NCBI RefSeq assembly: GCF_011045215.1
Contig: NZ_CP049201.1
DNA from: Escherichia coli
GTDB taxonomy: Bacteria > Pseudomonadota > Gammaproteobacteria > Enterobacterales > Enterobacteriaceae
Reading direction: 5' to 3' (one strand)
DNA: 64,000 bases
Part shown: one piece after another, positions 13,276 to 15,242 of the stretch
Layout: each line of letters starts with the position of its first letter
Numbering within the stretch: position 1 is the stretch's first letter
The notes under the pieces: model-generated
Database searches by the model: none
Told to the model about the DNA's origin: nothing
The model's input: the letters and a program-made list of their open reading frames with translations, nothing else
Made by a program: the position numbers and the translations under genes

Positions 13276-14376
13276 ATGGAACATTTCGACGTGGCGATTA
13301 TTGGCCTCGGCCCGGCAGGATCGGCGTTGGCACGAAAGTTAGCAGGCAAAATGCAGGTGATCGCGCTGGATAAAAAGCACCAGCATGGTACTGAAGGTTT
13401 CAGCAAACCTTGTGGCGGTCTGCTGGCACCGGACGCGCAGCGATCTTTTATTCGCGATGGGCTGACGCTTCCTGTCGATGTGATCGCTAATCCGCAGATT
13501 TTCAGCGTCAAAACCGTCGACGTCGCCGCATCGCTCACACGTAACTACCAGCGAAGCTATATCAATATTAATCGCCATGCTTTCGACTTGTGGATGAAAT
13601 CGCTGATCCCCGCCAGCGTTGAGGTTTATCACGACAGCCTGTGTCGAAAAATCTGGCGTGAGGATGATAAATGGCATGTCATTTTTCGTGCAGACGGTTG
13701 GGAGCAGCATATTTCTGCCCGCTATCTGGTCGGTGCCGATGGTGCCAACTCGATGGTGCGGCGGCATCTCTACCCGGATCATCAAATCCGTAAATATGTC
13801 GCTATCCAGCAGTGGTTCGCAGAGAAACATCCGGTGCCGTTCTACTCCTGCATCTTTGATAATGCGATAACTGACTGTTACTCATGGAGTATCAGCAAAG
13901 ACGGTTATTTTATCTTTGGCGGTGCCTATCCAATGAAAGACGGTCAGACGCGTTTCGCGACGCTGAAAGAGAAAATGAGCGCCTTTCAGTTCCAGTTTGG
14001 TAAGGCGGTAAAAAGCGAAAAATGCACGGTGCTATTTCCCTCACGCTGGCAGGATTTTGTCTGCGGTAAGGACAACGCCTTTCTGATTGGTGAAGCGGCG
14101 GGATTTATCAGCGCCAGCTCGCTGGAGGGGATAAGCTATGCGCTGGATAGCGCAGAGATTCTGCGTGCAGTGTTTCTGAAACAGCCGGAGAAGAGCAACG
14201 CCGCTTACTGGCGCGCCACCCGCAAACTGCGTTTAAAACTCTTCGGCAAGATAGTAAAAAGCCGATGCCTGACCGCACCGGCTTTAAGAAAGTGGATTAT
14301 GCGCAGTGGTGTGGCGCATATTCCACAGTTGAAAGATTATCCAACGTGCTTCACATCGCCCACCAGCAGGATGTAA
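13276..14376 (+). CDS. cbrA: FAD-dependent oxidoreductase-like flavoprotein
   Basis: N-terminal dinucleotide-binding motif [15 protein letters not shown]; start at MEHFD. Confidence 0.8.
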
Positions 14377-14452
14377 GAGAGCGCGCCAATCAACGCGACG
14401 GCGGAGATATAAACCAGTGCCGGGGCGAACCCATAGCCTTGCAACAGATATT
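14338..14452 (-). pseudogene. dgoT: 3'-terminal remnant (~37 codons) of an MFS transporter, probably dgoT
   Basis: Minus-strand frame reads ...[41 protein letters not shown], preceded immediately by an in-frame stop; hydrophobic transporter-like tail in the position dgoT occupies in K-12. Confidence 0.4.
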
Positions 14453-14585
14453 AGTCCACAAAAAAACACCTCATAAGAAAAGGTCTTATATCGGGCAGAA
14501 ATCTGAAAAGGGAGATCAGGCGCTAAACAGGAGGGAAAGAAGAGTATGCTTTCAACGGCTTAGCTACTCGTTTAAAGGATTAATC

Positions 14586-15242
14586 ATGAATTTGAATTTT
14601 AAGGGATTTTTTAAGGCTGCCAGTTTATTCCCACTGGCGCTGATGCTTTCAGGCTGTATCTCGTATGCTCTGGTTTCCCATACCGCAAAGGGTAGTTCAG
14701 GAAAGTATCAATCGCAGTCAGACACCATCACTGGGCTATCGCAGGCAAAAGATAGTAATGGAACAAAAGGCTATGTTTTTGTAGGGGAATCGCTGGATTA
14801 CCTTATCACTGATGGTGCCGATGACATCGTTAAGATGCTCAATGATCCAGCACTTAACCGGCACAATATTCAGGTTGCCGATGACGCAAGATTTGTTTTA
14901 AATGCGGGGAAAAAGAAATTTACCGGCACAATATCGCTTTACTACTACTGGAATAACGAAGAAGAAAAGGCACTGGCAACGCATTATGGTTTTGCCTGTG
15001 GTGTTCAACACTGTACCAGGTCACTGGAAAACCTAAAAGGCACAATCCATGAGAAAAATAAAAACATGGATTACTCAAAGGTGATGGCGTTCTACCATCC
15101 ATTTAAAGTGCGATTTTATGAATACTATTCACCCAGAGGCATTCCGGATGGTGTTTCCGCAGCATTACTGCCAGTGACTGTTACGCTGGACATCATTACT
15201 GCACCGCTGCAATTTCTGGTTGTATATGCAGTAAACCAATAA
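14586..15242 (+). CDS. yidX: Putative lipoprotein, 218 aa
   Basis: Start at MNLNFKGFF; signal peptide with lipobox LSGC. Confidence 0.8.

Follow-up and report, generated by a model that had tools for sequence, protein, structure and literature searches.

The question raised by this locus is how cbrA and yidX have come to lie next to each other. The annotated K-12 record gives the order cbrA, dgoT, dgoD, dgoA, dgoK, dgoR, yidX, yidA, yidB, gyrB, whereas in the DNA considered here the end of cbrA (14376) and the start of yidX (14586) are separated by a gap of 209 bp. The stretch analyzed as a whole (the window, 64 kb) is E. coli DNA spanning the yidJ to mnmG region close to oriC, with gyrB at 16853-19270, followed by recF, dnaN, and dnaA. 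A preliminary description of the window had put the gap at about 210 bp and had placed the dgoRKADT operon between the two genes in K-12, both of which agree with the measured distance and the annotated order. The features on which the argument turns are as follows.

13276-14376, plus strand: cbrA, the 366-aa long allele, from the ORF list and the RefSeq annotation of GF3-3, the closest genome, mapped by offset.
14337-14450, minus strand: dgoT 3' remnant of 114 bp, comprising codons 409-445 and the TAA stop.
14392-14520, no strand: tract of 129 bp identical to Escherichia sp. E1V33, with flanks about 7% diverged.
14425-14490, no strand: junction-proximal patch, unlike every dgo+ E. coli allele, in which the terminal 26 bp of the remnant carry seven substitutions and the first 40 bp of retained intergenic DNA are divergent.
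14450/14451, no strand: deletion junction, placed by pairwise and multiple alignments.
14451-14585, plus strand: retained pre-yidX DNA, 135 bp, originally the part of the dgoR-yidX intergenic region (its half) nearer to yidX.
14586-15242, plus strand: yidX, intact, 218 aa, with a lipoprotein-type signal ending in LSGC.

Alignment of the segment 13900-15100 with the K-12 cbrA-yidX interval, a comparison of the kind that the preliminary description had recommended for 14300-14600, yields two blocks with a gap over the dgo operon; the left one ends in the 3' end of dgoT, and the right one begins in the dgoR-yidX intergenic region. At the base level, the junction corresponds to positions 3255 and 8006 of the K-12 locus, with a clean gap of 4,750 bp (about 3,863,913-3,868,662 in NZ_CP064678.1). 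The absent DNA comprises codons 1-408 of dgoT (92% of the gene), dgoD, dgoA, dgoK, dgoR, and 141 bp upstream of dgoR. Hence, the deletion from dgoR through most of dgoT that had been proposed at the outset is upheld, and it further takes the upstream 141 bp, which constitute the dgo promoter and both DgoR operators (IR1 and IR2). IR1 has been defined as ATATTGTTGTACTACAATTTAG (PMC11705089); only its terminal TTAG is kept, at 14451-14454, where it forms the start of the retained 135 bp, and therefore the whole promoter-operator element is gone. In a tblastn search of the entire window with all five K-12 Dgo proteins, the sole match was the dgoT remnant (E = 1.6e-14); DgoK, DgoA, and DgoD had no match in the window, and the GntR/FadR repressor DgoR had none at E <= 1e-3, its gene being spanned by the alignment gap. 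The window has its chromosomal slot and flanking genes in common with the K-12 dgoRKADT operon, a system for D-galactonate catabolism with a DgoR-repressed promoter carrying IR1 and IR2, but lacks every defining feature of an intact version of it.

The remnant is a minus-strand frame of 37 sense codons (14340-14450) terminated by a TAA stop at 14337-14339. It had earlier been noticed as an orphan frame at 14338-14452; the frame is indeed present, but its ends (14337-14450) differ from those by one to two bases. The accompanying observation of an in-frame stop immediately upstream was accurate, with a TAA at 14451-14453. A comparison with DgoT had also been advised, on the view that the frame resembled the C-terminus of a membrane transporter; in BLASTP, it matches residues 409-445 of K-12 DgoT, an ACS-family MFS transporter of D-galactonate, with 35 of 37 positions identical (95%, E = 3e-20), in the expected position and orientation. 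Judged by these alignment scores, the match is far beyond chance. Though clearly homologous to DgoT, the frame falls far short of a full 12-helix MFS domain, as only 37 of the 445 codons are left, and it possesses neither a start codon nor a promoter. It is a pseudogene fragment, and a promoterless piece of 37 codons corresponding to the last transmembrane helix of DgoT has no plausible function. RefSeq labels the identical 114-bp interval “incomplete; missing N-terminus” in both GF3-3 and O157:H7 Z1615. A scan of 14200-14700 for consensus promoters and terminators recovered none on the plus strand upstream of yidX, and nothing in it exceeded the shuffled expectation.

Taking these findings together, the locus is almost certainly a deletion scar, at which the dgo operon has been lost from between cbrA and yidX and with it, we infer, the use of D-galactonate via the dgo pathway. 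The direction is directly evident as loss rather than a missing insertion, because a dgoT remnant is present. We propose that an ancestor carried a plus-strand cbrA, followed by dgoT, dgoD, dgoA, dgoK, and dgoR on the opposite strand, the dgo promoter and operators, and a plus-strand yidX. A single illegitimate recombination event, involving no IS element and at most 1 nt of microhomology, then most probably removed the 4,750 bp from the edge of IR1 through dgoR, dgoK, dgoA, and dgoD to dgoT codon 408. The junction between cbrA and yidX reads …CAACAGATA/TTAGTCCAC… (the slash marks the breakpoint) and aligns as the same sequence in GF3-3 and O157 Z1615; it has no IS element and no in-register shared k-mer of >=7 at the two breakpoints. 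A 9-bp repeat, ATCAGGCGC, was considered as a mediator; it lies 65-70 bp from both breakpoints and does not fit the junction.

The scar is not peculiar to this strain. When carriers are counted as genomes covering >=80% of a 301-bp junction query, the same junction is directly observed in 413 of 5,426 complete E. coli genomes (about 8%), at 97.7-99.3% identity. These include O157:H7, O145:H28, O169:H41, and O157:H16 Santai, the first three of which we take to be serotypes of phylogroup E. The converse search with the K-12 operon as a query found >=80% of it in 5,010 genomes, a part in 12, and none in 404; the 12 genomes with a partial operon represent other, independent deletions. One separate dgo deletion is seen in E. 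coli O141:H4 P13-6 (NZ_CP080223.1, 8574-8625), where 52 bp at the end of the operon query are all that is left. The typing markers of phylogroup E (arpA, chuA, yjaA, and TspE4.C2) are located beyond the window. Across its first 25 kb, the closest genomes (99.1%) are without exception junction carriers with these serotypes, and the window, at 99.1% identity to the nearest complete genomes, appears on this similarity to come from a member of an O157:H7-related lineage. The deletion allele is an old one that has become fixed across a large lineage of E. coli. It is a widespread and already annotated lineage allele rather than a strain-private one, i.e., an ordinary polymorphism.

The window and the cbrA-yidX junction of O157:H7, O145:H28, and O169:H41 strains (NZ_CP062744.1 ILQ43_RS27955; NZ_CP053259.1 HLY12_RS22265) have the same breakpoint, the same 114-bp dgoT fragment with its signature of seven substitutions, and the same flanking genes. 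However, the window matches no junction of this type exactly, the best being 99.1-99.3% over 301 bp. Two of the differences are private to the window among the compared strains, namely, Arg443His in the remnant (CGC to CAC, 14346-14348) and Lys2Asn in yidX (AAG to AAT, 14586-14594). A further difference is that the window, like GF3-3 but unlike O157:H7, has the long form of cbrA, with TAT in place of TAG. This stop codon, in the 3' part of cbrA (14338-14376), is polymorphic: K-12, O157, O111, and E1V33 have TAG (354 aa), whereas the window, GF3-3, APEC O18, and 118UI have TAT and a product of 366 aa. The long frame is extended by 36 nt and has a 40-bp opposite-strand overlap with the dgoT 3' end; it is also present in strains that retain dgo, namely, APEC O18 and 118UI.

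Other catabolic losses are known in the O157:H7 lineage, e.g., the sorbitol and beta-glucuronidase defects, which arise from point or frameshift mutations and are confined to O157:H7. The dgo scar resembles them in being the loss of a carbon source pathway fixed in a pathogen-containing lineage, but it differs in being a clean multigene deletion found in a much wider lineage and in one other Escherichia species.

A simple one-step deletion alone does not explain two aspects of the scar. The first is a cluster of substitutions beside the junction. Within 14425-14450, the final 26 bp of the remnant, there are seven differences from dgoT, in a sequence that is invariant in the aligned dgo+ strains (B2, B1, K-12, and others); the other 88 bp of the remnant have only zero to three. 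Thus, seven of about nine remnant differences fall within the 26 bp adjoining the junction (binomial p ~7e-4). The signature occurs in every carrier and in none of the ~5,000 dgo+ genomes. A search of the whole collection with a 71-bp query gave 412 matches at >=95%, a number corresponding to that of the junction carriers; among the matches listed, carriers were at 97.2-100% and dgo+ genomes at <=90.1%, with no intermediates. Likewise, a 42-bp query from the left flank matched only carriers in megablast; a right-flank query of equal length had no match, probably through the low-complexity filter. Five of the seven substitutions are synonymous third-position changes, and the other two convert GCG to TTG, resulting in Ala411Leu.

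The second aspect is a junction tract shared beyond E. coli. A search of 100,044 GTDB species representatives with a degenerate 32-mer recovered a single genome, that of Escherichia sp. E1V33, which is itself a deletion carrier with the very same junction. E1V33 shares about 92% identity with the window along 9.4 kb, and in the kilobase flanking the scar on either side the two differ by about 7%, but there are no differences between them across 14392-14520; at that divergence, the probability of zero differences in 129 bp is ~1e-4. On its simplest reading, this tract suggests that the deletion allele passed from one lineage to another as a short recombination patch. This raises the possibility that the scar was not born in the E. 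coli lineage at all, and that homologous recombination brought in, from a divergent Escherichia lineage, a short foreign patch in which the deletion was already present, with a minimal extent of 14425-14490 and a maximal extent of 14392-14520. As a reading of where the allele came from, this does not conflict with the deletion itself. An imported patch with a divergent or long-decayed dgoT end would account for only the junction-proximal bases being different; the clustering and largely synonymous nature of the substitutions, the lack of any intermediate allele in dgo+ E. coli, and the tract of identity within diverged flanks are all consistent with it.

Several observations nevertheless weigh against such an import. 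A dgo+ donor, i.e., an intact dgoT with the signature, was found neither among the GTDB representatives nor in JGI metagenomes searched with a 35-mer that also demanded the preceding Gly codon. Further, residue 411 is Ala in 119 of 120 retrieved DgoT homologues and Ser in the remaining one, with Leu in none of the 120, and because Ala is so conserved at this position the patch does not have the appearance of a functional foreign allele. At five of the seven substitutions, the derived base is also identical to the in-register base just upstream of the right breakpoint (a post hoc comparison, p ~0.02), which could instead indicate that a mosaic junction was templated in situ. Finally, the transfer could equally have run from E. 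coli to E1V33. On balance, we consider import from a divergent Escherichia possible but somewhat doubtful. Still more tentatively, and in our opinion improbably, the dgo deletion might be a mobile loss-of-function allele. Homologous recombination would then have carried a patch of <=129 bp, including the junction and a dgoT end that is foreign or decayed, across species-level Escherichia lineages, namely, E. coli phylogroup E and that of E1V33. Were this the case, the loss of D-galactonate catabolism would have to have been favored by selection in some niche, as opposed to arising from passive decay. The substitution cluster and the junction tract common to another Escherichia species are the only mildly new elements in this locus, and they are minor curiosities.

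Returning to the deletion as such, its predicted consequence is physiological: as DgoT, DgoD, DgoK, and DgoA are missing, the strain is not expected to use D-galactonate, at least by transport and catabolism through these proteins as far as the window extends. The published data are concordant with this. The growth yield of group E strains on D-galactonic acid lactone (0.40) was reported to be significantly below that of groups A/B1, B2, and D (0.82-1.01) (Sabarly et al. 2011, PMC3147056), and several natural E. coli isolates have been noted to be devoid of structural dgo genes (2025 paper, PMC12288454). In our literature search, this group E growth phenotype and general remark were all that we found, with no explicit description of the dgo deletion junction of O157 or phylogroup E. 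The loss is already visible in public annotations and published growth data. As a marker of the O157:H7-related lineage, the scar is robust and typable by PCR, and it predicts a D-galactonate-negative phenotype, though its practical value is small. The use of D-galactonate and mutations in dgoR are important for gut colonization in other E. coli, and in light of this role it is ecologically relevant that the loss is fixed in a pathogen-rich lineage associated with cattle.

This prediction would fail if the operon had been relocated rather than lost, with a dgo copy elsewhere in the genome (on an island or a plasmid, for example) still permitting D-galactonate use. Such copies do exist in a few strains. 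E. coli strain 20 (NZ_CP064847.1, 1768911-1776471) has a second dgoRKADT that is not in the cbrA-yidX slot and has remnants of IS200/IS605, IS66, and IS3 on its flanks, and 12 dgo matches lie on plasmids; therefore, the dgo operon can be reacquired. Moreover, the 413 junction carriers exceed the 404 genomes without a dgo match, and at least 9 carriers have a dgo-like match elsewhere. However, about 98% of the carriers are without any dgo DNA, and the window, the visible part of this genome, contains no dgo copy. Hence, relocation is very unlikely here.

The two remaining alternatives have next to no probability. That the absence of dgo is ancestral, the operon having been inserted between cbrA and yidX in other E. 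coli lineages only, might be entertained on presence and absence by themselves, which are symmetric, with nothing else in its favor; it is refuted by the dgoT remnant, an in-frame C-terminus of 37 codons situated exactly at the dgoT end of dgo+ strains and in the same orientation, with an overlap of the cbrA 3' end that is likewise as in those strains, while the retained intergenic DNA opens with the last 4 bp of IR1. An assembly or sequencing artefact, i.e., a collapsed or misjoined contig, has nothing to recommend it and is already refuted by the identical junction in 413 independently finished genomes and in the draft genome of another Escherichia species.

Besides the scar, the neighborhood shows other variation. 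E. coli has two very divergent allele classes of yidX (14550-15300). One is common to the window, K-12, O111, and O157, and the other is carried by APEC O18 (B2) and 118UI, with ~28-30% nucleotide differences between the classes against only 2-4% in the neighboring genes. The glv locus at 4541-8464 encodes a family 4 glycosidase (439 aa), a GntR-type regulator, and an alpha-glucoside PTS IIBC protein of 625 aa that is apparently unsplit; E1V33 is without this entire stretch. Relative to both K-12 and O157, divergence spikes at 12750-12900 (yidR) and 16200-16350 (yidB), with 15-21 differences per 150 bp against 0-5 in the surroundings, which suggests small recombination patches; GF3-3 departs from the window in the yidB spike but is the same as the window in the yidR spike.
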